A stretch of 32,000 bases of DNA from Xylanibacter ruminicola 23 (GTDB lineage Bacteria; Bacteroidota; Bacteroidia; Bacteroidales; Bacteroidaceae). Shown here in pieces: positions 1,641 to 18,777 of this stretch. The DNA is taken from positions 1,830,001-1,862,000 of the forward strand of contig NC_014033.1 in NCBI RefSeq assembly GCF_000025925.1, written 5' to 3'. The position numbers and the translations under genes are program-made. A model generated the notes under the pieces. That model searched no databases. It was not told the origin of the DNA and saw only the letters and a list, made by a program, of their open reading frames with translations. Within the stretch, counting starts at the first letter, position 1. Each line of letters begins with the position of its first letter.

Positions 1641-3609
1641 GTCGTATTAGATTATCTTTAAACGACTCTGGCAAATCATTAAAATAAGCACTAAAGCCCC
1701 AAACCCTTACAATAAGATTAGGATATTTTTCAGGATGAGCTTTGGCATCAACCAATGTAGCTTTATCCATAACATTAAGCTGTAATTCAAAAATACCGTT
1801 TGAACATGCATTTTTTAATATCCTCGTAAGCTTTTCTGACTCTTTTATATAAGAAGAAGGTATTATAAAATCTACCACATTGCCATTTATGCAATTATCA
1901 TTATAATGCAGCATTGACGAGAATTCTAATACCTCGGATATGTCTATTTTTGAAGTAAGAGGAGATATGTGAACAGCAAAGGGTTCTCCATTTAATCTCC
2001 CATCTAATGAAGCAAGAACATCTTTTGAACTTGAAATATAATTAGGAGAACTAAAACCGACTTTGACAGGTTGACCGTTGCTCGTCAATTTACTAATCAC
2101 ATCTCCTGTAAATGATATAAGATTATTTGTTAGTTCAACAACTTCTTCATCTGTTGATCCAAATTTCTTCCCTGAATTAATTACTAATGAATGGAGATCT
2201 TCCATTCCCTCAAAATTAGTCTCAATTGCCCTTTTGCAATCTGAGAGCTTAAACAATTGTTCATCATATACAAATTGTTTGATACTCAATAATGCGTTCA
2301 CGGTATTGGGGAGACTTACCACTTGTGCGCCATGGAAAGAGTATTTTGCACCACCATCTGTGAAGTCCAGTTCTTTATCAATACAATCATCAAAAAACAA
2401 TGTAAAAAGAGGAGAGCAATCAAAATCAATATCTTTTACGACACTTTCTAATTCTTTTGCATAAGCTGCTTTATACGAAATTAATAGACTATTAAAGTTT
2501 GTAAAGTCTTCTCCAGACAATATAATATCATTAAGAGGTTTTATGGCAATAGCGCTCTTAAAAGGATTATTCTGGTCAAATGACTTACCTATAATAAGCG
2601 GCTCCCAACAGGCAGATGTACCAACATTCCAGACATCACTCCTATCGTAACCAAACCTAGCCATCTTATCCATTACGAGCATTTCGTTCATAATAAGAGG
2701 TGAGCCTGTTCCTGTTAATATACACTTAACAGCCTTATTCCATATTTGCATTGATGTATCCTTATTAACCCGTAGAATTAATTTGGGGTCAGGAATCTTT
2801 AACTCTGCCATAATTTCTAAGAATAACGAAGTTAAAGGTGTATCCACATTTAATCCTTGCTCGTTAACACCTCCGAGTAATATATACTGCCCTGTATCAC
2901 CAACAAATGACATGCTTTTCGCATGTGTATCTTTCCCTAAAACGAGGATAAATTCTCTTATCATCCTTTTTGCCTCGCTCTCGGTTATTATTCCATTTAG
3001 TATATCATTTTGATAATACTCGCATAAAATACTATCGAGACGACCCAATCCTATATGATAGTGATCCATTTGCCAAAATAAAGCATTATAAAACAACAAC
3101 TTTTGCAATGCTTCATCTAATGAGGTCGGTTTGCCATATAGCATTTTTGGAAAATAATCTTTAAGGATGATTTCTCTCCTTCCATCACTCTTTGCTAATG
3201 ATATAGATACTCTATTAGCAAGCTTTTCTATCTCGCTCAACACCTTAAGTTCTCTGTCTTTGAAAGCAATATTTGAGCATTTTTGAATGCGGCTTCTTAA
3301 TTCATTTAAATCTGATTGAAGTACGCGGTCATAGTCTACTGTAATACTACAAATAACAGGGCGCTCATGCATTCTCAATATTAACGAATCCAGTGGATAA
3401 ATATACTCAGTGCCTGTATGAATCTTGATTTTTGAATAAATAAGAGACAATTGTCTGACATAATCATCCAAATAGTTCAAGCTTTTATTATCAAGAACCA
3501 ACTTTCCGTTTACAACAGCTCCAAACCTTGAAACAGAAGGATTTTTTTGATTTAGCTTGCCATACCCTCCGATCAACTTCATGAGCCATGAAAATGCACG
3601 ATTACCCAT
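1615..3609 (-). CDS. Glycyl radical enzyme, PFL2/dehydratase-like family, short form (664 aa)
   Basis: C-terminal IVRVWGFSAYFNDL matches the glycyl radical loop (RVxG[YF]). NVGTSACWEP matches the Cys loop with C-x-E spacing, as in eliminase/dehydratase-type GREs. The blocks GRLDSILCEYY, LILRVNKDT, GTGSPLIMNE, DGRLNGEPFA and ELQLNVMD...HPEKYPNLIVRV follow the family layout as I recall it. Confidence 0.85.
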   Translation of the reverse strand: MGNRAFSWLMKLIGGYGKLNQKNPSVSRFGAVVNGKLVLDNKSLNYLDDYVRQLSLIYSKIKIHTGTEYIYPLDSLILRMHERPVICSITVDYDRVLQSDLNELRSRIQKCSNIAFKDRELKVLSEIEKLANRVSISLAKSDGRREIILKDYFPKMLYGKPTSLDEALQKLLFYNALFWQMDHYHIGLGRLDSILCEYYQNDILNGIITESEAKRMIREFILVLGKDTHAKSMSFVGDTGQYILLGGVNEQGLNVDTPLTSLFLEIMAELKIPDPKLILRVNKDTSMQIWNKAVKCILTGTGSPLIMNEMLVMDKMARFGYDRSDVWNVGTSACWEPLIIGKSFDQNNPFKSAIAIKPLNDIILSGEDFTNFNSLLISYKAAYAKELESVVKDIDFDCSPLFTLFFDDCIDKELDFTDGGAKYSFHGAQVVSLPNTVNALLSIKQFVYDEQLFKLSDCKRAIETNFEGMEDLHSLVINSGKKFGSTDEEVVELTNNLISFTGDVISKLTSNGQPVKVGFSSPNYISSSKDVLASLDGRLNGEPFAVHISPLTSKIDISEVLEFSSMLHYNDNCINGNVVDFIIPSSYIKESEKLTRILKNACSNGIFELQLNVMDKATLVDAKAHPEKYPNLIVRVWGFSAYFNDLPESFKDNLIRRAEVYEAT

Positions 3610-3610
3610 A

Positions 3611-5059
3611 TTATTTTGTTTTCATTCTAAATTTATCTGATACTGTTGAACAAATCCAAATGAATGAACCGTTTTTCAGTATATACTCCATAACACAAAA
3701 TGTTAATACTCCTAATAAAACATAACTAATAACAAGAACCCATCCTTGTAGAAACTGCTTTAATAATATCATTAGAGGAATGAGGATTAAGGCTCCAATT
3801 AGTGCTTTAAGAATATCCTTCCAATTACTAATTCTTATAGGTGTATTTTTATAAACGAATAGCGTTGTAGCTACCAAGATAATTGTTTCTGCTGCGACTG
3901 ACGCAATAGAGGCGCCAACACTACCATAGAATGGAATTAATAGGCAGTTTAAAAGGAAATTAGATATCGCTCCAATTATCACTGAATAAAGAAAAAACTT
4001 ATCAAACCCCATACCTATAAGGATTTGAACTCCTGTAAGATTATTTAAACCTATCGCAATTATCAATAAACTTAATATCATTAATGGTAGAATCGATCCC
4101 CAGAACAACTCTCCAAAAAACAAAGGGACAAAAGAAGGGGAAACACATATAAGACCTATCGCGGCAGGGAAAGAAAGAAGAGAGACTACAGAGAACGACT
4201 TATCCATTAAAGAGTTAATCCCTGAATAATCTTTGTTTTGCATATAATATGACACCCTAGGAACAGCAACTATTGACAAACTGGTTACTGCCGTAAGTAT
4301 CACTTTTGACATATTCATGGCATTTGTGTAAAAACCGACTTCTTCATATCCTTTTATAAATCCCAACATTAAAGTATCTAACACACCATATATCGATATG
4401 GCTATAGAAGAGGCGAACAAAGTAAGTAAAGGCCGCATATGGGGTTTAAGACCTTTAGTCGTTAAGCGTGGTCTTATCCCAGAGCGTCTCATTTTAATAT
4501 AGTTCCAAATGTCGGTAAGGACAGCCGCAAGTACACTAATTAAAACATATATTATAAGATCCTCCTTGTTACGTACAAAAACAAAAAGGCTAATAACACT
4601 TGCTGTACGAATAACTAATGTACGAAATGTAATATATCCAAACTCTTCAAGACCTTGATAATACCAATTAATTTTAAATGGTGCGAGGTACACAAGAAAA
4701 CCGGCGAGTAAGAAAATAAGAAAGTTCTCCGTAAGCTGGTTCACAAATAGAAGTGAAGCAATATAAGCGATAGTGACTCCAATTGTAGTAAAGGCCGCTA
4801 TAGACATTATCTGCGAAACCAGCGTTGAAATTCCTTCTTTATCATCTCTTAGTTTAGAGACCTCGCGTACACCATAAGTGGGTATACCAAGCAATGCAAC
4901 CAATGCAAAATACCCTGCATACGTATTGGCAAAATTGTATATACCTATACCATCTGGTTCCAAAACGCGTGAGACATATGGTGCCGTGATTAAAGGAAAA
5001 ATCACGGATGAGATATTCAAAAGGACATTATATAAAAAATTCCTTTTAATTGATTTCAT
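3611..5059 (-). CDS. wzx: Wzx-type oligosaccharide flippase (MOP superfamily polysaccharide biosynthesis protein)
   Basis: 482 aa, highly hydrophobic with about 12-14 predicted TM stretches. The N-terminus (NFLYNVLLNISSVIFPLITAPYVSRVLEPDGIGIYNFA) is typical of Wzx/RfbX. It lies in a CPS operon. Confidence 0.8.
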   Translation of the reverse strand: MKSIKRNFLYNVLLNISSVIFPLITAPYVSRVLEPDGIGIYNFANTYAGYFALVALLGIPTYGVREVSKLRDDKEGISTLVSQIMSIAAFTTIGVTIAYIASLLFVNQLTENFLIFLLAGFLVYLAPFKINWYYQGLEEFGYITFRTLVIRTASVISLFVFVRNKEDLIIYVLISVLAAVLTDIWNYIKMRRSGIRPRLTTKGLKPHMRPLLTLFASSIAISIYGVLDTLMLGFIKGYEEVGFYTNAMNMSKVILTAVTSLSIVAVPRVSYYMQNKDYSGINSLMDKSFSVVSLLSFPAAIGLICVSPSFVPLFFGELFWGSILPLMILSLLIIAIGLNNLTGVQILIGMGFDKFFLYSVIIGAISNFLLNCLLIPFYGSVGASIASVAAETIILVATTLFVYKNTPIRISNWKDILKALIGALILIPLMILLKQFLQGWVLVISYVLLGVLTFCVMEYILKNGSFIWICSTVSDKFRMKTK

Positions 5060-5119
5060 AGATTATACCAAGAAAACAGGGATTAATTACACAAAACTAA
5101 TTATTATAGAAAATCCCTA

Positions 5120-6406
5120 TTAAATATTAGAAACCATATCCATAGCTGCCCCCATTGCAACATCCATATTATAGTACTCCCAATCAGCAAAACGACCAGT
5201 GAAGTAGAAGCCATTAGGCGATAAAGCATCCTTCAGCGACTTGATCATACCACGGGTATTTGCGTCCTGAATCGGATAGGTATATTTGTTATACTGATGA
5301 TCCAAATATTTTGGATTCAGGGGTATTCTGGAGAGGTTATCTAGGATGTCCTCCTTGCTTATTTCATCTGTAAACTCGATAGTTGCCGTAATGCGATCCT
5401 TAGCCACAGATAGGTAATTATTTGTCTCAGAGAAATTACCAGTACAAATAATACGATGACTCTCATGACGACGAGAAGGCTGATAAATCCAGGAATAAGG
5501 ATTTTTGTCAATTTCGCAGAACACAGCTGTCGTGCCATGATACTCCAAATTAGCAACAGGTTTCTTGAAGGCTTCAATATCCAGGCCCCCAATCATATTG
5601 ACCATGTCTTTGATATTGCCGCAGAACACGACTTTATCAAACTCTTCTCCACATACAATCCATTTCCCGTTTACAAGTTTTATTGATTGGATGTCAGAGT
5701 CGTAGCGAATATCAAGACCTTCAGCCAACTTATCTGCAATATATTGTGAACCATCTTTCTTTTCATACCAGAAAGTGGCATGTACAAAGGCTTTTTCTTC
5801 TACCTTATTGGCATTGTTATCTCGCATTTCCTGAGTGGTTGGCATTGGAAGTTTTCCCTCCATCCACGACATCGGAACTGTTGTCAAATCACGACGCCAC
5901 ACTTTCTCATTGTAGGGCTGGAAATAGAGGTTATAGAGAGTCTTACCGAAGCGCCAACGGAGGAAATCACCAAAGCTATCGTAATCCGTAAATGTGGCGT
6001 TCAAACCCTTCACCTTATCTATTTCCTCCAAGTCTTCATAGAAGGCTGTCTGTGTTGCCTCATCAAATAGGTACATATGATTCTCTATGGGGTAAGGGAT
6101 ATTGTCATGTTCCAGAGACGTGCCGTTTTTATCCATAAAGACACAAGAATTACGGTCAGCTTTACTGAACTCTTCTTCACGGGTAAACTTTGACCAAAAC
6201 CAATCAAGAACATCTTGTCGTTTGGAGTTAAACACATGTCCTCCACAAGTGTGGAAGAGACTACCATTCACTCTACGGCACTTAATTAGGCCTCCAGGCT
6301 GGCTTTCTTTCTCAAAGACAGTAATGTCATACTTATCTCTAAGAAAATGAGCAGTGCTCATTCCAGAAATGCCAGCTCCAATTATCGCAATTCTATTATT
6401 ATTCAT
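5120..6406 (-). CDS. FAD/NAD(P)-binding oxidoreductase; possibly a UDP-galactopyranose-mutase-like or amine-oxidase-fold enzyme
   Basis: 428 aa. N-terminal IAIIGAGISGMSTAHFL...VFEKESQPGG is a Rossmann GxGxxG dinucleotide-binding motif followed by the GG motif. HTCGGHVFNS resembles the mutase/oxidase fold. It has a 4-nt overlap with the upstream gene. Confidence 0.6.
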   Translation of the reverse strand: MNNNRIAIIGAGISGMSTAHFLRDKYDITVFEKESQPGGLIKCRRVNGSLFHTCGGHVFNSKRQDVLDWFWSKFTREEEFSKADRNSCVFMDKNGTSLEHDNIPYPIENHMYLFDEATQTAFYEDLEEIDKVKGLNATFTDYDSFGDFLRWRFGKTLYNLYFQPYNEKVWRRDLTTVPMSWMEGKLPMPTTQEMRDNNANKVEEKAFVHATFWYEKKDGSQYIADKLAEGLDIRYDSDIQSIKLVNGKWIVCGEEFDKVVFCGNIKDMVNMIGGLDIEAFKKPVANLEYHGTTAVFCEIDKNPYSWIYQPSRRHESHRIICTGNFSETNNYLSVAKDRITATIEFTDEISKEDILDNLSRIPLNPKYLDHQYNKYTYPIQDANTRGMIKSLKDALSPNGFYFTGRFADWEYYNMDVAMGAAMDMVSNI

Positions 6407-12257: not shown

Positions 12258-12283
12258 TCCTATCCGTTAAAAGATATAAAATG

Positions 12284-12299
12284 TGTCCCCACGGGGACA
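12284..12299 (-). terminator. Hairpin TGTCCC-CACG-GGGACA followed by a U-rich tract, 27 nt upstream of the kinase start
   Basis: 6-bp GC-rich stem with a tetraloop. On the minus strand it is followed by CATTTTATATCTTTT. It is a terminator-like element inside the operon. Confidence 0.35.
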
Positions 12300-12484
12300 G
12301 ATATTTTGTAGTTTCATTACTTATTCGCACCTTTGCAAGGTTGATATAAGCAATAACGATTAATCATAAAATTAACATCTAAAAATTATGACAAAATTAA
12401 ATTTCATCAAGACAAATTTACATCATGTCACCGAACCATCCTCGATTGCGGGCTTTCTGAAGCAATATCCTCATCCCTTCTTAA

Positions 12485-12545
12485 CCCCCTCTCTATATAG
12501 TCCCCACCCTCTCTCTAAAGAGAGGTGGGGCTATAGAAAGAGGGG
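12485..12545. repeat. 61-bp imperfect palindrome (nested hairpin)
   Basis: CCCCCTCTCTATATAG-TCCCCACCCTCTCTC-TAAA-GAGAGGTGGGG-CTATAGAAAGAGGGG. The inner and outer arms are complementary with a few mismatches. Confidence 0.7.
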
Positions 12546-12584
12546 TGTAAGGGATAGAGATATTTTCCTTATTGGTTTTCATCG

Positions 12585-12650
12585 AAAATCAAGTTGATTT
12601 TTACTCAAAATCAAGTTACTTTTGATCCAAAATCAAGTTAGTTTTTACTG
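12585..12650. repeat. Three tandem 22-bp direct repeats AAAATCAAGTTNNTTTTNNNNN
   Basis: The units are AAAATCAAGTTGATTTTTACTC, AAAATCAAGTTACTTTTGATCC and AAAATCAAGTTAGTTTTTACTG, head to tail with no spacers. An inverted CAACTTG follows at 12655-12661. Confidence 0.85.
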
Positions 12651-12713
12651 ACCATCAACTTGGTTATCTGACACTAACCGGTCATAAATGGTCAATTTAC
12701 TATCCGGTTATCG

Positions 12714-12721
12714 TACTTTTG
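12714..12721 (+). promoter_or_regulatory. Plus-strand -7 box TACTTTTG, antisense to the CPS operon
   Basis: Exact TAnnTTTG match. It is followed by a 35-codon ORF (12751-12858, MTYKQTTLFGAFNEPFFHRNREASPKIGVPLNRGT) and by the 12814-12881 hairpin. Confidence 0.35.
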
Positions 12722-12813
12722 CAACGAAATAATTATCAAAATTCAGCGATATGACGTACAAACAGACAACACTTTTTGGAGCTTTCAACGAACCGTTTTT
12801 TCATCGTAATCGA

Positions 12814-12881
12814 GAGGCCTCCCCCAAGATTGGAGTACCCCTTAACAGGGGTACGTAAATCTTTAGGGGGAAAAGGGCCTC
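12814..12881. other. 68-nt three-tier hairpin (candidate structured RNA or terminator)
   Basis: GAGGCC/GGCCTC is the outer stem, TCCCCC/GGGGGA the middle stem, and GTACCCCT-TAAC-AGGGGTAC the terminal 8-bp stem. All pairs are Watson-Crick, so the strand cannot be assigned. Confidence 0.5.
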
Positions 12882-12888
12882 GAAGTGC

Positions 12889-12960
12889 GGTGAATTAACT
12901 CAAAAGGGGCAATGAATTAATTCATTAGGGGTTTTGAATTAATTGACGGTTTTTTAGGGG
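12889..12960. repeat. Three direct repeats of TGAATTAAYT...AGGGG immediately after the upxY stop
   Basis: The units are GTGAATTAACTCAAAAGGGG, CAATGAATTAATTCATTAGGGG and TTTTGAATTAATTGACGGTTTTTTAGGGG. The middle unit contains the perfect 14-bp palindrome ATGAATTAATTCAT (12912-12925). Confidence 0.75.
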
Positions 12961-13653
12961 TTATATTTTCTGGAGGAACGGGGTTGGAATGTAGGCGGTG
13001 GCGCAGAGGCAATTGAGGGCGGTAAGAGCAACGAGCACTCGTTGCTGACCGCGGGCTCGGATAACACGCCCACGAACACCTTTGAACTGACCACAGATAA
13101 CCTCGACCTCATCGTCGGTCTTGTAATGGAAGTCGCCACCTTGGAGCATCAGTAGATTCTCGTCGTTAGTGCAGGTGGCACGGATAAAGTTGAGCATCTC
13201 GTGCTCAGGGATAGTAAGCGGCGGGTTGCGCCAGTTCTCACCCTCGACAAAATGATTGTAGTAGAAGCTGAGGAACTCTGACAGCTGCGGTGCAGGCGAA
13301 GGCTCATCGGGATCGTTATTACGAACGAACATCATGGCCTGCCTGGGTATGAGATAGGCGAACACGATATTGGCAATGAGGCATTGCAACACCTTTTTAG
13401 GGCGCCCCTTCACCTCGATATAGGTATAGCGTTTGGGAACGTAGGCATAAACACCACTCTGGATGAGCAGCTGCTCGGCTAATATCTCACGACCATAGGA
13501 GGCACGAAGTACATACCAACGCTTATCAGGGTCAGGAGCGTATTCTACCGACACCCCTTTTTGTGCATTTACAGCTTCGGGGATGGCCATGGGGGTAAGT
13601 CCACAGCGGGTTATTGGTGATGTAGCCTTGTTAGCATTAGTCAATGCATCCAT
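12961..13653 (-). CDS. upxY: UpxY-family transcription antiterminator (NusG/KOW-like), first gene of the CPS locus
   Basis: 230 aa. KRWYVLRASYGREILAEQLL is an NGN-like start, and the C-terminal EVEVICGQFKGVRGRVIRARGQQRV is a KOW motif. Its position at the head of the polysaccharide operon fits UpxY. Confidence 0.85.
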   Translation of the reverse strand: MDALTNANKATSPITRCGLTPMAIPEAVNAQKGVSVEYAPDPDKRWYVLRASYGREILAEQLLIQSGVYAYVPKRYTYIEVKGRPKKVLQCLIANIVFAYLIPRQAMMFVRNNDPDEPSPAPQLSEFLSFYYNHFVEGENWRNPPLTIPEHEMLNFIRATCTNDENLLMLQGGDFHYKTDDEVEVICGQFKGVRGRVIRARGQQRVLVALTALNCLCATAYIPTPFLQKI

Positions 13654-14037: not shown

Positions 14038-14169
14038 CACCTTTTATTTGAAATAACCAAAGAAAAAGCCAATAAAGAATAAAAAAATCCTCCTGCCTTG
14101 ATTAAAAGCAGAAAATAACAATTTGTTCATCTTCTTTTCAAAAAACTTGCATGTTTCAACTATTTGTTT

Positions 14170-14177
14170 TATATTTG
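14170..14177 (+). promoter_or_regulatory. Promoter -7 box TATATTTG for the 14206-15191 operon
   Basis: Exact TAnnTTTG match 29 nt upstream of ATG 14206, with a TTGC 19 nt further upstream. Confidence 0.5.
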
Positions 14178-14205
14178 CAGCGTCTTAACAATATTAGAGT
14201 TATAT

Positions 14206-14691
14206 ATGGAAGATAATAATATCAAAATGGCTTCAGAGCCTGCAGTAGCATATCCCATAACATCTTATACGGATGTGATGGAGTATATTCACTCTATCCA
14301 TATATCACGTGAAGACAAGGAGAAAGTGGCTCAGCGTCTTACAGTTGAGGTAACTCAACCAGCTTTGGCTGAGGCTTATGATCGCATAGATCACCTAAGT
14401 ACGCTTGGAATAGATTGGGATGGCCACGGAGCTCTTCCTATATCATTTCGAGTACTTAAAAATATCAAGAGCGTTCTGATGATTTCACAGAATTCTGATT
14501 GGGAACACTGGATGATTGCTCCTGATACTAACGCTACGATTGATTTGGAGTCGGAAAAAACTGGAGCTGTAATCAGTCTTGGAGCTTATGAGTATTCTTA
14601 TTTTGCAAAGGTTAATGGTGAAAGATTAGGTGAGAGTCATATTGATTTTAAACCAGAGGCTTTCCTTGAATTAATGCGTAAACTCGGATGA
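14206..14691 (+). CDS. Hypothetical protein (161 aa), first gene of an uncharacterised two-gene operon; candidate antitoxin or immunity component
   Basis: I take the ATG at 14206 (MEDNNIK...), downstream of the -7 box; the ORF-track start at 14164 lies upstream of the likely TSS. It contains LGIDWDGHGALPIS. The stop overlaps the next start (ATGA). Confidence 0.6.
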   Translation: MEDNNIKMASEPAVAYPITSYTDVMEYIHSIHISREDKEKVAQRLTVEVTQPALAEAYDRIDHLSTLGIDWDGHGALPISFRVLKNIKSVLMISQNSDWEHWMIAPDTNATIDLESEKTGAVISLGAYEYSYFAKVNGERLGESHIDFKPEAFLELMRKLG

Positions 14692-15191
14692 ACACATCAG
14701 ATACACCAACAGAAATACATCAGGTTCCCTCCGAGGAAAATGTCGCTCGTATTCTTTCCAAGGAGTGGTTCGTTAAGGATAAACTTTTATCAGTTGCTTT
14801 TGCTTTGGATGCAGGTGAGACTTATCTCTCTGTAAATCGTCCTGCTATTGATACATATGATAGTGATGTTTCTGCATTTGTGAAGAAACATAGTAGTTAT
14901 GCTTTCGATAGCGATAGTTACAAACGTGCATTGTTAAATGTTGGTGACGTTCGTAGTATAAAAGTAGAGGTTGGGGCAACTCAAATGATGACAGATGTTG
15001 AGGTGGAACCTCGAGATGCTCATACAAAGTCGCATGCGGGTATTTTCACCAGGTTCCAAAACGTGAACATCAAGAAAGGTCAGATATTGAAAGCTGGTCC
15101 AACAGCCGAGGAAATCTCTGCAGATACGGTACTTTTAGAAGTCCGCAAAGAATTACTAGCCCTTTCAACTGTTGAGGATTGCAAGTTTTAA
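14688..15191 (+). CDS. Hypothetical protein (167 aa), second gene of the operon; candidate toxin or effector
   Basis: ORF track. It has a 4-nt ATGA overlap with the upstream gene. I recognised no family. Conserved-looking blocks are ETYLSVNRP and EPRDAHTKSHAGIFTRF. Confidence 0.6.
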   Translation: MNTSDTPTEIHQVPSEENVARILSKEWFVKDKLLSVAFALDAGETYLSVNRPAIDTYDSDVSAFVKKHSSYAFDSDSYKRALLNVGDVRSIKVEVGATQMMTDVEVEPRDAHTKSHAGIFTRFQNVNIKKGQILKAGPTAEEISADTVLLEVRKELLALSTVEDCKF

Positions 15192-15241
15192 GTAGGCAAA
15201 TAAGCAAGTACAATATCCCCTATACAACAATCGACTTGCAA

Positions 15242-15383
15242 AAATAAACATTTAATGTTTAAATTTACTTTTCGATTGCAGAAACACTAATACCATGCTA
15301 AAACACTCAGGGAGCGCCCCGCGGCAAGGGGCAGACAGCCCCGACGAGCGAGGGCGGGTGGAGCGAGCTTTATGCGAGCGGGG
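15242..15383. repeat. Left copy (A) of the direct repeat flanking the AbiE cassette
   Basis: 15242-15265 AAATAAACATTTAATGTTTAAATT is identical to 17348-17371. 15346-15383 GAGCGAGGGCGGGTGGAGCGAGCTTTATGCGAGCGGGG is identical to 17506-17543. The flanking GC-rich hairpin regions are similar. Confidence 0.85.
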
Positions 15384-15405
15384 GGCTAAATGGCTATAGT
15401 ACTAG

Positions 15406-15747
15406 TTAACCCAATAATTTTATTCCGTCTTCAGTTACGTTTTCGCGGAAAGGACTAATTATACTGCTTTCCCAATCGCGTTTGGTATATAAGATCGTAT
15501 TAATGCACTGATTATAGTCCCAACCCAATTCGCATAATGGATAAGAATAATCATCAATATCCTGAGAGGTTATGTGATCTTTATCAAGCAGGATAAGCAC
15601 ATCCCAATCAGAATCTTCACGAGCATCACCACGTGCTCTTGAGCCAAAGAGAATAACTGTAGCACCCTTTGGCACAATCTGACTAACCTTGTCTCTTATA
15701 GCATTCAAGATTTGATTATTAATCACGCTTACCCTCCATCTTATCAA
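15406..15747 (-). CDS. Minimal nucleotidyltransferase (MNT / Pol-beta superfamily) domain protein
   Basis: 113 aa. ILFGSRARGDAREDSDWDVLILLD matches the GS-x9-12-D-x-D NTase motif. An alternative GTG start at 15726 overlaps the AbiEii stop (GTGATTAA). There is no HEPN partner gene downstream. Confidence 0.8.
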   Translation of the reverse strand: MIRWRVSVINNQILNAIRDKVSQIVPKGATVILFGSRARGDAREDSDWDVLILLDKDHITSQDIDDYSYPLCELGWDYNQCINTILYTKRDWESSIISPFRENVTEDGIKLLG

Positions 15748-16522
15748 TAAAAATCTTATAAACTATCGGATAGGCTTCTGAGGGTGAGAATTTTATCTCA
15801 GGGCGGAGAAGTAGCGTTGTGTCCTCCAAGAACTCCGGGTCTTGCATTTTCTCCTCCATATTATTCACAAACTGCTTGTACGACGGTGCCTTATCTACCA
15901 CAAATTCCATATACTTCTTATAGCATAGCATAACCTTATCCACGTCCACATCATGCTTGGTCAATGCACAATAAAGGTCAAACAGGTCGCGTCCCTTCTT
16001 TCGTTGATAAAGCGCACGCAGTTTGGTTCCAAGTAATTCCTCGAAGTGATAGGTTGTCAATTCTGTCTTACCTGTAAACCACGAGTTTTTCATACTAAAA
16101 GGAACTTTAGTCAACCCCAGCACGTTAAAATGCTCAAAGCAGTTGATTTCAACCTTCAGTCGAATCTGTATCACAGGAGCTATCTCCGATTCAACCCTAA
16201 ACAACATTGTATTGTTGTATCGTTTCTGCTTGGTCACTCTATCGGGTAGCCAACTGAGCACTTCTCCTAACCTATACATAATAGGTTTGATAGGACCAGG
16301 ATTAATCTGCACAAGGTCGATATCCTCACTATAGCGAGGCTGCGGTGATAAGTAAAGCTTATGCAGGGCTGTGCCACCACGAAATGCTAATTGTGAAGCG
16401 AGAAATTCATCGCTAAAGATACTTATCAACGCACGGCAGATAATGAGATCTTGCTCCACCATATAAGGCTCTGTCCAAGGAGCCATTTCCTTCCATTCTT
16501 GGATAAAGTATTCTGGTATCAT
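15719..16522 (-). CDS. abiEii: AbiEii/AbiGii-family nucleotidyltransferase toxin (DUF1814)
   Basis: 267 aa. FRGGTALHKLYL...YSEDIDL is the NTase core of AbiEii. It has a 4-nt overlap with the upstream AbiEi gene. Confidence 0.8.
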   Translation of the reverse strand: MIPEYFIQEWKEMAPWTEPYMVEQDLIICRALISIFSDEFLASQLAFRGGTALHKLYLSPQPRYSEDIDLVQINPGPIKPIMYRLGEVLSWLPDRVTKQKRYNNTMLFRVESEIAPVIQIRLKVEINCFEHFNVLGLTKVPFSMKNSWFTGKTELTTYHFEELLGTKLRALYQRKKGRDLFDLYCALTKHDVDVDKVMLCYKKYMEFVVDKAPSYKQFVNNMEEKMQDPEFLEDTTLLLRPEIKFSPSEAYPIVYKIFIDKMEGKRD

Positions 16523-17331
16523 ATTTCATCAGTTTCTATTTCTTGATTAACGATCACCTTCCATCGACTATCAATTACCATATCGTCTGTTTGAGTCTTC
16601 GACTGCTTCAGACGGATTTTCCGAAACAGTTTACTCTGCTTTTGTGCAAGCATCAGCAGACGATCGGCAAGTTCATGCTCTTCAATCAAATCAAGCAAAT
16701 ATCCCAGACGCTGAATAACGGGTGCATTAAAGAAAGTGAGAAGATCTGTGAAGGATTCGTCGAAATGCATGTTTTCTGATAGTTCTATCAGCACCTCTGT
16801 AACGCGATTAATACCACCAACCTTGTTCTCATTAAGCACCAAATCAAGGGCCGTTAACTCAGGCGACGAAACATTTATGAACCCCATTTGAGTCTTCACC
16901 TGCTTCACATACATCATAGGGAGAGGGTTGCGAAGTGTAAAATCAAGTCTTACTCCATTCTTTATTCCAGAGTGTATAGGTGCTCCGTTCACTGTAACCT
17001 GGAACGCCATTGCCCGCTGATGCCCCGCGCCGTTCAGCGCAGCAGCCGACAGCAGAGATACGTAATAATCCCTACCTAAAGACTTCATCAGATGGTCGAT
17101 ATAAAGCGATGGTGGCACATTTCCCTTCAACCGATACTCCGTAGGCACCACCACATAGAAATTCTGCCAAGGAGAAACAATCACACCCTTCTTACCTAAC
17201 CTCGACAAAGCCGTATTCAGACTATCATCCGCCTGCGATAGCCCTTGTGCTAACACATCTTCCTTCGTAAAGATGTACCTGCCTCGAATCATTTGCTGGT
17301 CAACCCAGCTCTGTAAACTACCCGTTCGCAT
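16519..17331 (-). CDS. abiEi: AbiEi-family antitoxin/transcriptional regulator (type IV TA)
   Basis: 270 aa. It has a winged-helix-like N-terminus (FTKEDVLAQGLSQADDSLNTALSRLGKKGVIVSPWQNFYVVVP) and a SLLSAAALNGAGHQ block, as in COG5340-type AbiEi. It lies directly upstream of AbiEii. Confidence 0.75.
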   Translation of the reverse strand: MRTGSLQSWVDQQMIRGRYIFTKEDVLAQGLSQADDSLNTALSRLGKKGVIVSPWQNFYVVVPTEYRLKGNVPPSLYIDHLMKSLGRDYYVSLLSAAALNGAGHQRAMAFQVTVNGAPIHSGIKNGVRLDFTLRNPLPMMYVKQVKTQMGFINVSSPELTALDLVLNENKVGGINRVTEVLIELSENMHFDESFTDLLTFFNAPVIQRLGYLLDLIEEHELADRLLMLAQKQSKLFRKIRLKQSKTQTDDMVIDSRWKVIVNQEIETDEI

Positions 17332-17351
17332 AACAATCTACTAACAGAAAT

Positions 17352-17366
17352 AAACATTTAATGTTT
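17352..17366. promoter_or_regulatory. Palindrome AAACATT-T-AATGTTT between the abiE promoter and the abiEi start; candidate AbiEi operator
   Basis: Perfect 7-bp inverted repeat with a 1-nt spacer, lying between the -7 box (17385-17392) and ATG 17331. AbiEi proteins are known to autoregulate through inverted repeats in their promoters. Confidence 0.4.
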
Positions 17367-17384
17367 AAATTCGCTTTTCGGCTG

Positions 17385-17392
17385 CAAATATA
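17385..17392 (-). promoter_or_regulatory. Promoter -7 box TATATTTG (minus strand) for the abiEi operon
   Basis: Plus-strand CAAATATA is the reverse complement of TAnnTTTG, 54 nt upstream of the abiEi ATG. Confidence 0.5.
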
Positions 17393-17543
17393 AACAATAT
17401 AATTAAAACTACCAAGTCTTTAAGGGAAAAAGTTACTATTAGATGTAAAAATACCCAAAAGGACCGTGGGGTATGCCGCGCGGCTGGGGGCACGCTGCCC
17501 CCAAAGAGCGAGGGCGGGTGGAGCGAGCTTTATGCGAGCGGGG

Positions 17544-18335
17544 TTATAATGCCGATGCGACTTTGTTGGTGAGTTCGATGAACTGGGGGATGGAGAGCTG
17601 CTCGGGGCGGCGGGTCATTATCTCATCGTCGAAGAAACCTGCGGGGGCGGGATGATTGGCATCGAAAATCTGACGGAGAGAAACACGGAGCATCTTACGG
17701 CGCTGGTTGAAGGTGGCTTTTACTACACGACGGAACAACTGTTCGTCGCAACCCAGATCGGTCACCTCGTTACGCGTCATGCGGATAACGGCACTCTGTA
17801 CCTTGGGAGGCGGATTGAACACGCCTGGCTCGACGGTGAAGAGATACTCCACATTATACCAAGCCTGAATAAGTACCGACAGAATACCATACTGCTTATT
17901 GCCTGGCTGTGAGGCCATGCGAACTGCCACCTCGTGCTGAATCATACCTGTGCAACAGGGAATCAAATCCTTATTGTCGAGCATTTTGAAGAAAATCTGC
18001 GACGAGATATCGTAAGGATAATTGCCTGTAAGCACAAACTGCTGACCATCAAACACCTCACGAAGATCCATTCGCAAAAAATCGCCACCAATGATGTTAT
18101 CATTGAGACGTGGGAAATTCTCCTGTAGATAAGCCACACTCTCGCGATCGATCTCGACCACCTTGAAGGGACGGGGCTTCTCTACGAGATATTGAGTCAT
18201 CACACCCATGCCAGGACCAACCTCCAGTACAGGAATGTTGGGACAGGCATCTACGGTATCGGCAATACGCTTGGCGATATTCAGGTCGGTCAGAAAGTGC
18301 TGACCGAGATTTTTCTTGGGTCGAACTTGTTTCAT
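17544..18335 (-). CDS. rsmA: 16S rRNA (adenine1518/1519-N6)-dimethyltransferase
   Basis: I take the start at MKQVRPKKNLGQHFL (ATG 18335-18333). LEVGPGMGVMT is the SAM motif, and the NYPY motif is present. The -7 box CAAAGGTA (18341-18348) lies inside the longer ORF-track extension, which argues against that extension. Confidence 0.9.
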   Translation of the reverse strand: MKQVRPKKNLGQHFLTDLNIAKRIADTVDACPNIPVLEVGPGMGVMTQYLVEKPRPFKVVEIDRESVAYLQENFPRLNDNIIGGDFLRMDLREVFDGQQFVLTGNYPYDISSQIFFKMLDNKDLIPCCTGMIQHEVAVRMASQPGNKQYGILSVLIQAWYNVEYLFTVEPGVFNPPPKVQSAVIRMTRNEVTDLGCDEQLFRRVVKATFNQRRKMLRVSLRQIFDANHPAPAGFFDDEIMTRRPEQLSIPQFIELTNKVASAL

Positions 18336-18355
18336 GGGGGCAAAGGTACGAATAA
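18333..18355. repeat. Left arm of a 23-bp perfect inverted repeat (right arm at 18758-18780)
   Basis: CATGGGGGCAAAGGTACGAATAA is the exact reverse complement of TTATTCGTACCTTTGCCCCCATG. Each arm contains a -7 box, a 5-nt spacer and the ATG of a divergent gene (rsmA and the 18778 membrane protein). Confidence 0.85.
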
Positions 18356-18380
18356 GTGAGCGAAAATCCAAATATAGAGC

Positions 18381-18410
18381 AAAAAAAATCGCAGATTCGA
18401 AAATCTGCGA
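18381..18410 (-). terminator. Rho-independent terminator after the small ORF
   Basis: 9-bp stem TCGCAGATT / AATCTGCGA with a 4-nt loop, followed on the minus strand by a run of 8 T. Confidence 0.6.
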
Positions 18411-18435
18411 CTCCATTTTTCAATTTTTCGTTCAA

Positions 18436-18540
18436 TTACTTATTGTTGTCTACATTAACAGCAACGGTTACTACCAGTGATACAGCTAATGCGAAGGCAG
18501 CCATGGTCATTAATAAAAAACTTGTCTCTAAAGTTACCAT
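18436..18540 (-). CDS. Small hydrophobic peptide (34 aa), [34 protein letters not shown]
   Basis: Own translation. A purine-rich AGAGAAAGGAA lies 4 nt upstream of the ATG. It has its own -7 box (18593-18600) and its own terminator (18381-18410). It has a single predicted TM helix. It is below the ORF-track length cut-off. Confidence 0.5.
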
Positions 18541-18592
18541 AATTAATTCCTTTCTCTAATCTTTTATTTATTTGTTATCCTTAAAACCACTG

Positions 18593-18600
18593 CAAAGGTA
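18593..18600 (-). promoter_or_regulatory. Promoter -7 box TACCTTTG (minus strand) for the small ORF
   Basis: Plus-strand CAAAGGTA, 52 nt upstream of ATG 18540. Confidence 0.45.
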
Positions 18601-18777
18601 CGACTGTTATCGCGCACAGCCAAGAAAATAGTAGAAAAAAGGCAAAAAAGTGAGCTTTCTTTGACACGTATCAATTATTATTATTACTTTGGCTTCGCCG
18701 AAGGTACTTTCACTCGGAAATAAAAATAAATAGGGATTTATTTTGTATTTCACTCGTTTATTCGTACCTTTGCCCCC

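Follow-up and report, generated by a model that had tools for sequence, protein, structure and literature searches.

A paired gene cassette of Bacteroidales with recurrent one-sided loss of its second gene: a candidate toxin-antidote module

A 32,000-nucleotide stretch of the Xylanibacter ruminicola 23 genome (contig NC_014033.1, positions 1,830,001 to 1,862,000; referred to below as the window, whose own numbering we use) carries two small overlapping genes, here called A and B, whose relatives decay in a strikingly one-sided manner. B is never found without A, it is often lost, and A is then kept, which is what one would expect if B were harmful in the absence of A. We regard this asymmetric decay as the most telling result of our analysis, and we propose that the pair works as a module of the type II toxin-antitoxin (TA) or abortive-infection kind, with B as the toxin and A as the antidote, autonomous, horizontally mobile and possibly defensive, a reading to which we give a probability of about 0.55. 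Gene A (14206..14691, plus strand) encodes 161 amino acids (aa) beginning with MEDNN and is the putative, antitoxin-like antidote, and gene B (14688..15191, plus strand) encodes 167 aa and is the putative enzymatic effector or toxin. The stop codon of A and the start codon of B share an ATGA overlap (14688..14691, plus strand), which fits translational coupling of the two. The earlier note, made from the letters of the window alone, had reported this arrangement and had suggested a new TA or defence pair; the observation itself is confirmed by our analysis and its interpretation is partly supported.

The one-sided loss was seen in two independently seeded scans. The B-seeded scan took one genome per species and yielded 33 loci, 32 of which we count as genuine relatives; every intact B gene in it (31/31) has an intact A directly upstream, and three loci combine an intact A with a broken B. 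The A-seeded metagenome scan gave 68 loci with an intact A and a contig long enough to hold B: B is intact at 49 of them, and at 19 (28%) it is absent, truncated, frameshifted or represented by its 3' end only. By A identity these 19 loci form 14 lineages, and they amount to at least 15 independent losses when the contigs L062 and L064 (our locus labels begin with L) are counted separately; in at least five lineages the 5' half of B with its putative catalytic residues has been deleted and the 3' end left behind. Orphan A genes show a ratio of non-synonymous to synonymous substitution (dN/dS) of 0.014-0.135 against their nearest B-bearing relatives, so that purifying selection on A has been kept. 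We also considered a swapping of toxins at the loci devoid of B and rejected it, since B is plainly deleted there and no replacement open reading frame (ORF) recurs.

Two of the B-less contigs are nearly isogenic with the window and encode an A protein identical to that of the window. L064 matches window positions 14120-14691 at 99.1% and then resumes at 15104, a clean deletion of 412 bp of B (14692-15103), and 3' of it the nucleotidyltransferase (NTase)-AbiE block that neighbours the pair continues at 98.7%. In L062 B is lost entirely. Such natural deletion variants in a near-isogenic background are ready-made controls. A third near-isogenic contig, L063, retains both genes (3472-4457 against window 14206-15191), and its synonymous divergence from the window is 0.03 in A and 0.19 in B, which suggests a recombination breakpoint at or near the junction of the two genes.

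The pairing extends far beyond the close relatives. Distant B homologues, with 25-32% identity, keep an overlapping upstream partner in quite unrelated surroundings: one setting is a fimbrial operon, another the space separating clpA from a kinase/PP2C/FHA cluster, and another a group of GH31 and Fic genes. These partners are homologous to A by the C-terminal WDGxGA domain only (72-81 bits over aa 52-160), and their N-terminal 50 or so residues differ from those of A. The divergences of A and B are correlated, with a mirror-tree r of 0.83 that was not reached in any of 2000 Mantel permutations and an r of 0.72 within the close subfamily, and in a metagenome-assembled genome (MAG) that carries five copies A and B have diverged in parallel, to 34-77% identity. 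The distance from the A stop to the B start lies between -13 and +8 nt in all 33 measured loci, 13 of which have the ATGA junction and seven a 1-nt overlap. Nucleotide similarity between the window and the loci of other organisms starts at 14201-14205 and ends at about 15184, and the flanks are unrelated. We looked for a third conserved gene and discarded the idea, as no neighbour cluster recurs across contexts; an apparent fusion of B to a transporter (L017 9971-11881) was likewise put aside, because there B merely lacks a stop and reads into a MATE/flippase gene, probably by loss of the stop codon or an assembly error.

Upstream of A, positions 14141..14205 on the plus strand hold what looks by its motifs like a promoter of the cassette's own with a short leader. 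A Bacteroidetes-type -7 box, TATATTTG, stands at 14170-14177 (plus strand), 36 nt 5' of the ATG of gene A, and the TTG of a -33-like element at 14147-14149 (plus strand), about 20 nt 5' of the box. Gene A has an alternative longer start, TTG at 14164; because the homologues of A all start with MEDN, we take the ATG at 14206 as the real one. A TAnnTTTG box occurs within 120 nt 5' of A in 28 of 32 loci, the rate in 120-nt windows drawn at random from these loci being 5.5%; it mostly precedes the ATG by 24-37 nt and is found also in the copies that lie inside capsule operons. These motifs suggest that A and B form an autonomous transcription unit. Intact copies of both genes are under purifying selection (dN/dS 0.05-0.13), and because of this and of the recurrent -7 box the features of the window are far beyond chance.

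Much of what the earlier note had read from the window thus stands: the two coupled ORFs at these coordinates, the consensus -7 box and the absence of a known family for either protein. The genes are conserved as a pair down to 25-32% identity of B. The TA-type pattern that it had assigned to the pair fits the evolutionary behaviour that we see: the pairing is obligate, A and B co-evolve, a single genome may hold divergent paralogues, and B is lost repeatedly, but never A alone. Its argument from a small-first gene order was of no weight, being trivial for two proteins of nearly equal length (161 and 167 aa).

Neither protein matches any Pfam or NCBIfam family, and sequence searches of the PDB, with single sequences and with profiles, gave nothing meaningful for A or B. 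A word-indexed search of 5.8 billion proteins returned 367 relatives of B and 82 of A; among these no Pfam domain was present and the sole name given was 'hypothetical protein'. A profile search with HMMER, exhaustive over 1.84 billion representatives, found only 165 relatives of B at E<=1e-3, and the B family must be considered narrow. All 32 genuine loci of the genome scan belong to Prevotella, Prevotellaceae, Bacteroidaceae or Bacteroidales MAGs, the rumen being the source of most, with up to five copies of the pair per MAG. The 33rd locus, in a cyanobacterium, is a match of 31 residues that we regard as chance.

AlphaFold2 (AF2) models built from the family alignments are confident and have a mean predicted local distance difference test (pLDDT) score of 89.0 and a predicted template modelling (pTM) score of 0.80 for A, and of 87.2 and 0.83 for B. 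Foldseek searches with these models, a check by remote homology that the earlier note had in view, revealed no similar structure in the PDB (best E 0.3 for B and 0.7 for A, template modelling (TM) score <=0.26) or, for B only, in BFVD (best E 0.18). The structures compared being those of the PDB and, for B, BFVD, we describe A and B as proteins without a solved structural relative, and 'new fold' would not be the proper claim. A is predicted to consist of a disordered N-terminus, three subfamily-specific helices (aa 21-64) and a C-terminal part in which an invariant W71-D72-G73-x-G-A loop leads into a helix, then a sheet of five strands and a last helix at the C-terminus; the conserved WDGxGA alpha/beta domain covers approximately aa 52-160. 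B is modelled as an alpha/beta protein. Signal peptides and hydrophobic segments are absent from both proteins.

Many polar residues are invariant in the close subfamily of B, and an alignment widened by 38 distant relatives at 22-47% identity narrows them down. F38, E44, S48, H116 and G118 remain invariant and R21, A37, L40, Y46, V49 and I119 are at least 90% conserved, in three motifs, V-A-R, E-x-Y-[IL]-S-V and S-H-A-G-I, so that the core common to the superfamily is R21, F38, E44-x-Y46-x-S48 and H116-A-G118. Being small, dispersed, invariant and polar, this set is active-site-like. The peptides which had been picked out by eye in the window, LGIDWDGHGALPIS in A and ETYLSVNRP and EPRDAHTKSHAGIFTRF in B, are indeed present and are the most conserved columns of the families. 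The suggestion that a His/Lys/Ser-rich block of B could be catalytic survives in part: S115-H116-A-G118 is kept across the wider family, whereas H112, K114, E107 and R109, like E105, are subfamily-specific.

Several identities for B were tried and abandoned. A likeness to DUF2002 (YgaC-like, PDB 2g7j) involves only aa 12-53 and is weak (E 0.02-0.12); it is lost with a broader B profile and is not in the Foldseek list. A HEPN-like R-x6-H reading of the RDAHTKSH segment fails because R109 is not conserved in the wider family, and because in the AF2 model the segment forms a loop and a strand, not a helix. A RES/ART-like arrangement (R21...E44/S48...S115/H116 or E105-x-E107) is unsupported, with no Pfam match and none in the Foldseek list, and E105 and E107 are subfamily-specific. 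More generally, searches of Pfam, NCBIfam, PADLOC and the PDB matched neither A nor B to a known toxin family (RES/ART, RelE/ParE, HEPN, PIN, HicA, Fic, GNAT and others).

From these data we suggest the following course of events. The promoter of the cassette would drive a bicistronic, translationally coupled mRNA. B would be a cytoplasmic enzyme with an active site formed from R21, E44, Y46, S48 and H116, and the C-terminal WDGxGA domain of A would bind B and keep it inactive. Should A be lost or inactivated, B would be freed and growth would be arrested; loss of the cassette, stress or phage infection may be the triggers. As an outcome, the variable regions that host the cassette would be stabilised and, possibly, phage infection aborted.

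Several points weigh against this proposal. The binding of A to B is something that we infer, as are the toxicity and the substrate of B, the trigger and an anti-phage effect. B bears no likeness to a known toxin fold in the Foldseek comparisons with PDB and BFVD (best E 0.2-0.3, TM <0.25), and both proteins are acidic, with median isoelectric points of 5.3 and 5.6, many RNase toxins being basic. No helix-turn-helix, ribbon-helix-helix or other DNA-binding family was detected in A and, as A has no recognisable DNA-binding domain, classical autoregulation by A is unsupported. The purifying selection on orphan A could mean that A has a function of its own, and some of the B disruptions in metagenomes, the whole or 5' deletions excepted, are possibly assembly errors. 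The pair was not found in phage and plasmid collections searched by tblastn with both proteins, nor in scans of IMG/VR. Lastly, the commonest neighbours of the pair in the close subfamily are capsule genes, with which it is co-directional, and defence genes recognised by PADLOC are only scattered among the neighbours.

The sole match in the phage and plasmid searches was a solo, very divergent A-like gene without any remnant of B on a replicon of S. copri, which we do not accept as carriage of the pair. This gene (WP_006847522.1; L061, S. copri DSM 18205 replicon NZ_CP085934.1, 4938-5800) lies 3' of a Panacea-domain pair and is followed by a GC-rich, repeat-rich non-coding stretch.

Could the pair then be a non-toxic accessory of surface-structure operons, that is, of capsule or fimbrial ones? 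It might act as a cross-locus regulator or modifier similar to UpxZ, which we take to be Pfam family PF06603 and which in Bacteroides capsule operons inhibits the UpxY of other loci in trans, or as a two-subunit enzyme of capsule precursors. The recurrent neighbours speak for it: clustering by blastp gave UpxY-like genes at 9 loci, epimerase/GHMP genes at 11, Bac_transf at 5 and the Wzx flippase at 5, plus PAP2, and a Pfam census of 133 neighbours counted 6 epimerase/dehydratase, 3 GT2, 3 Polysacc_synt_2 and 3 KOW domains. In L025, L030, L032 and L036 the pair lies directly 3' of UpxY on the same strand, in the slot of UpxZ, and no UpxZ gene is detectable in the window; the copies per MAG resemble the number of capsule loci, two copies stand in Mfa fimbrial operons, and B looks like an enzyme. 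An identical A protein (P0138) was also met at a capsule locus where the 3' segment that holds it is constant and the glycosyltransferase cassettes upstream vary by strain. However, the pair has no set place in capsule loci and may follow UpxY or sugar-nucleotide genes or lie close to the 3' end, many copies occupy unrelated sites, the cassette appears to have its own promoter, homology stops at its edges, and Pfam scans find no UpxZ likeness in A or B. B is lost from 28% of the A-bearing loci while the surrounding loci persist. We hold a role as a capsule accessory to be unlikely.

A second alternative would make B an interbacterial toxin and A its immunity protein, orphan A being immunity acquired against the B of competitors. 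Orphan A is frequent and under purifying selection, the A domain is predicted to be a folded unit of about 100 aa and not a disordered tail, the pairs are divergent and specific, and their genomic distribution is patchy. Yet B is a protein of about 150-170 aa without a signal peptide or a trafficking or secretion-associated domain, no type VI or other secretion genes recur nearby, and the antidote comes first with coupling, an order which is typical of TA modules rather than of effector-immunity pairs; we consider this explanation highly improbable. A third possibility is a dedicated anti-phage system, a short form of the candidate system PDC-M32, in which A would sense infection and B would be activated by infection only, with no addiction. 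The C-terminal domain of A matches PDC-M32A and B weakly matches PDC-M32B, PDC systems were nominated for their embedding in BREX, DISARM or restriction-modification (RM) loci, and the islet of the window and the L049 locus are rich in defence genes. But PDC-M32 is itself untested, the B of the window has no PDC-M32B match at all, A lacks the N-terminal part of PDC-M32A of about 240 aa, and defence genes are a minority of the neighbours, so we assign this version a low probability. In favour of the suggestion of a new defence system in the earlier note, A is remotely homologous to a PDC-M32 component; against it, the dominant neighbours belong to capsule biosynthesis and not to defence. The toxin-antidote module remains our preferred reading.

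Outside the capsule and fimbrial loci the pair was found in a ClpA/kinase cluster, among GH31/Fic genes, among beta-lactamase/amylase genes and in a TA/defence island, and two lineages adjoin IS66. The L049 lineage resides among genes for an integrase, ParE, SocA/Panacea, two ThsB-TIR proteins and AAA_15. At two capsule loci (L009 8932-9279 and L039 8533-8877) a weakly RelE-like gene (PF06296, E 1e-4) lies directly upstream of A/B.

In the window itself the pair is convergent with a minus-strand block of AbiEi (17331..16519) and AbiEii (16522..15719), which match the AbiE models, and a minimal MntA-like NTase (15747..15406, minus strand) that overlaps the 3' end of AbiEii; the convergence had been recognised earlier, the NTase had gone unmentioned. 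No HepT/HEPN partner ORF follows the NTase (15406-15747). The NTase-AbiEii-AbiEi block lies between the two copies, 15224-15400 and 17330-17545, of a direct repeat about 200 bp long; the copies are 76% identical overall and 96% identical in a GC-rich 45-nt core (GAGCGAGGGCGGGTGGAGCGAGCTTTATGCGAGCGGGG), and the hotspot may use the repeat for recombination or as an att-like element. Copies of the 45-nt core are present also in the rearranged variants L062 and L063.

The view of this region as a variable islet proved right for this species, since the near-isogenic contigs L062-L064 carry different cargo of the TA or defence type around the pair. L062 (1010-2808) and L063 (1549-3347) have an insertion of 1.95 kb between window positions 14107 and 14122, just 5' of the A promoter, coding for an AAA_21/AAA_15 ATPase of 355 aa and a DUF4276 protein of 242 aa; together the two genes resemble a defence pair of the ATPase type. 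After B, L063 has two small genes (4693-5435) in place of AbiE, which by eye are HicB-like (165 aa) and HicA-like (82 aa) and have no Pfam match. In L062 the MntA-like NTase follows A, inverted and detached from AbiE, and a DUF3791-DUF3990-DUF3791 gene set (4339-5262) occupies the same hotspot. No AbiE gene was found near A/B at any other A/B locus. We hence rejected the notion of A/B and AbiE as one unit, the AbiE block being separate, with flanking repeats of its own, and missing from the other loci; the adjacency is specific to this genome and incidental, and the guilt by association with AbiE that had been invoked for the pair does not generalise.

On the other flank a NusG/UpxY-like gene (12961-13653), divergent from A/B, is the first of a capsule operon that also codes for a GHMP kinase, a nucleotidyltransferase and an epimerase. 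Downstream of it lies a 700-bp non-coding gap (12258-12960) in which a 22-nt unit is repeated three times in tandem (12576-12661) and a strong hairpin is found (12475-12554), where Rfam matches were only spurious and miRNA-like; the Rfam scan of the flanking intergenic DNA as a whole gave sub-threshold noise and no known RNA. A promoter-like element of about 35 nt (TTATTCG[TC]ACCTTTGC...) occurs at 12302-12336, 18340-18375 and 18739-18773, in both orientations, and two of its copies constitute a 45-nt inverted repeat around 18375-18738.

Small toxin-antidote and defence cassettes are already known as a kind, and new TA families are reported regularly; what is new here is the two protein families, which have not been described. 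Should B prove to be a toxin, the TA and defence repertoire of Bacteroidales, a dominant order of the gut and the rumen whose immune and addiction systems are poorly charted, would gain an enzyme class and an antidote domain, both of them new, and PDC-M32 would receive its first functional handle. As a bolder and frankly tentative extension, which we think possible though doubtful, the families may make up a Bacteroidales-wide toxin-antidote superfamily of two folds without a solved relative, in which B would represent a new class of enzymatic growth arrest (with an R / E-x-Y-x-S / S-H-x-G site), the WDGxGA part of A would represent a novel neutralising domain that occurs also in PDC-M32, a proteobacterial candidate, and the module would act as an abortive-infection defence which settles by preference in capsule and fimbrial loci and helps to retain them. 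Those loci are determinants of phage adsorption, and the bias towards them raises the question whether such cassettes stabilise, or are coupled to, the phase-variable surface structures that set phage susceptibility.

Among known systems UpxZ is similar to the proteins of the pair in size, and in Bacteroides it occupies the slot right after UpxY (PMC11685472), as the pair does after an UpxY-like gene in four loci. There is, however, no sequence similarity: Pfam scans gave no UpxZ match for A or B (E<=1) or for 39 B relatives (E<=0.1), and A/B are two proteins, with a probable promoter of their own, that occur also far from capsule loci. AbiE (AbiEi/AbiEii, a type IV TA system) and the MntA-like NTase share with the pair its neighbourhood here and the strain-variable hotspot, but have no sequence relationship to it (neither A nor B matches the AbiE models, AbiEi PF09407/PF13338 and AbiEii PF08843), and L063 and L062 carry other cargo in place of the AbiE block. 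The features of polymorphic toxins and effector-immunity systems were not seen, B having 150-170 aa with no secretion or trafficking domain and no secretion genes recurring nearby.

PDC-M32, cassette CAS_00128 (FAM_01821>>FAM_00608) of PADLOC, consists like A/B of two genes. It belongs to a set of '145 untested' candidates for phage defence which Payne et al. (bioRxiv 10.1101/2024.01.29.577857) nominated for their embedding in BREX, DISARM or type I RM loci. The A of the window matches PDC-M32A with E 6e-5, and 9 of 10 further A-family proteins, three distant partners among them, match at least one of the four profiles, with a best E of 1.3e-7; the matches of the family (E 1.3e-7 to 0.02) always fall on profile positions of about 250-330 of 375. 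PDC-M32A has about 375 aa, of which roughly the first 240 are missing from the 161-aa A. For PDC-M32B there are weak matches, over the N-terminal half, in 3 of 39 distant relatives of B (best E 0.004), but none in the window's own B. At the level of the domain the sequence link of A to PDC-M32A is solid, that of B to PDC-M32B is only suggestive, and with both genes pointing to the same cassette coincidence is unlikely. The supplementary tables of the preprint give only family identifiers for PDC-M32, without domain annotation (bioRxiv 10.1101/2024.01.29.577857), and, as an untested candidate, it supplies no mechanism for A/B. PDC-M32 matches have been reported in Sinorhizobium prophages (PMC12429752), whereas the A/B family is confined to Bacteroidales and is not in the phage collections.

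A further parallel is offered by the type II TA systems (RelBE, HigBA, ParDE and the PanA type with exchangeable antitoxin domains). The differences are that A and B have no homology to a known toxin or antitoxin family or fold, that no DNA-binding domain was detected in A, that both proteins are acidic, and that A would neutralise by means of a folded domain, some 100 aa long. The likenesses are nevertheless many: A and B are small, overlapping and apparently co-transcribed, with the antidote first and a probable promoter of their own; they spread patchily and in multiple copies, in hotspots beside other TA modules; the presumed partner-binding domain of A is conserved and its other half exchangeable; and, as in those systems, it is the gene of the putative toxin that decays and the gene of the antidote that is kept.

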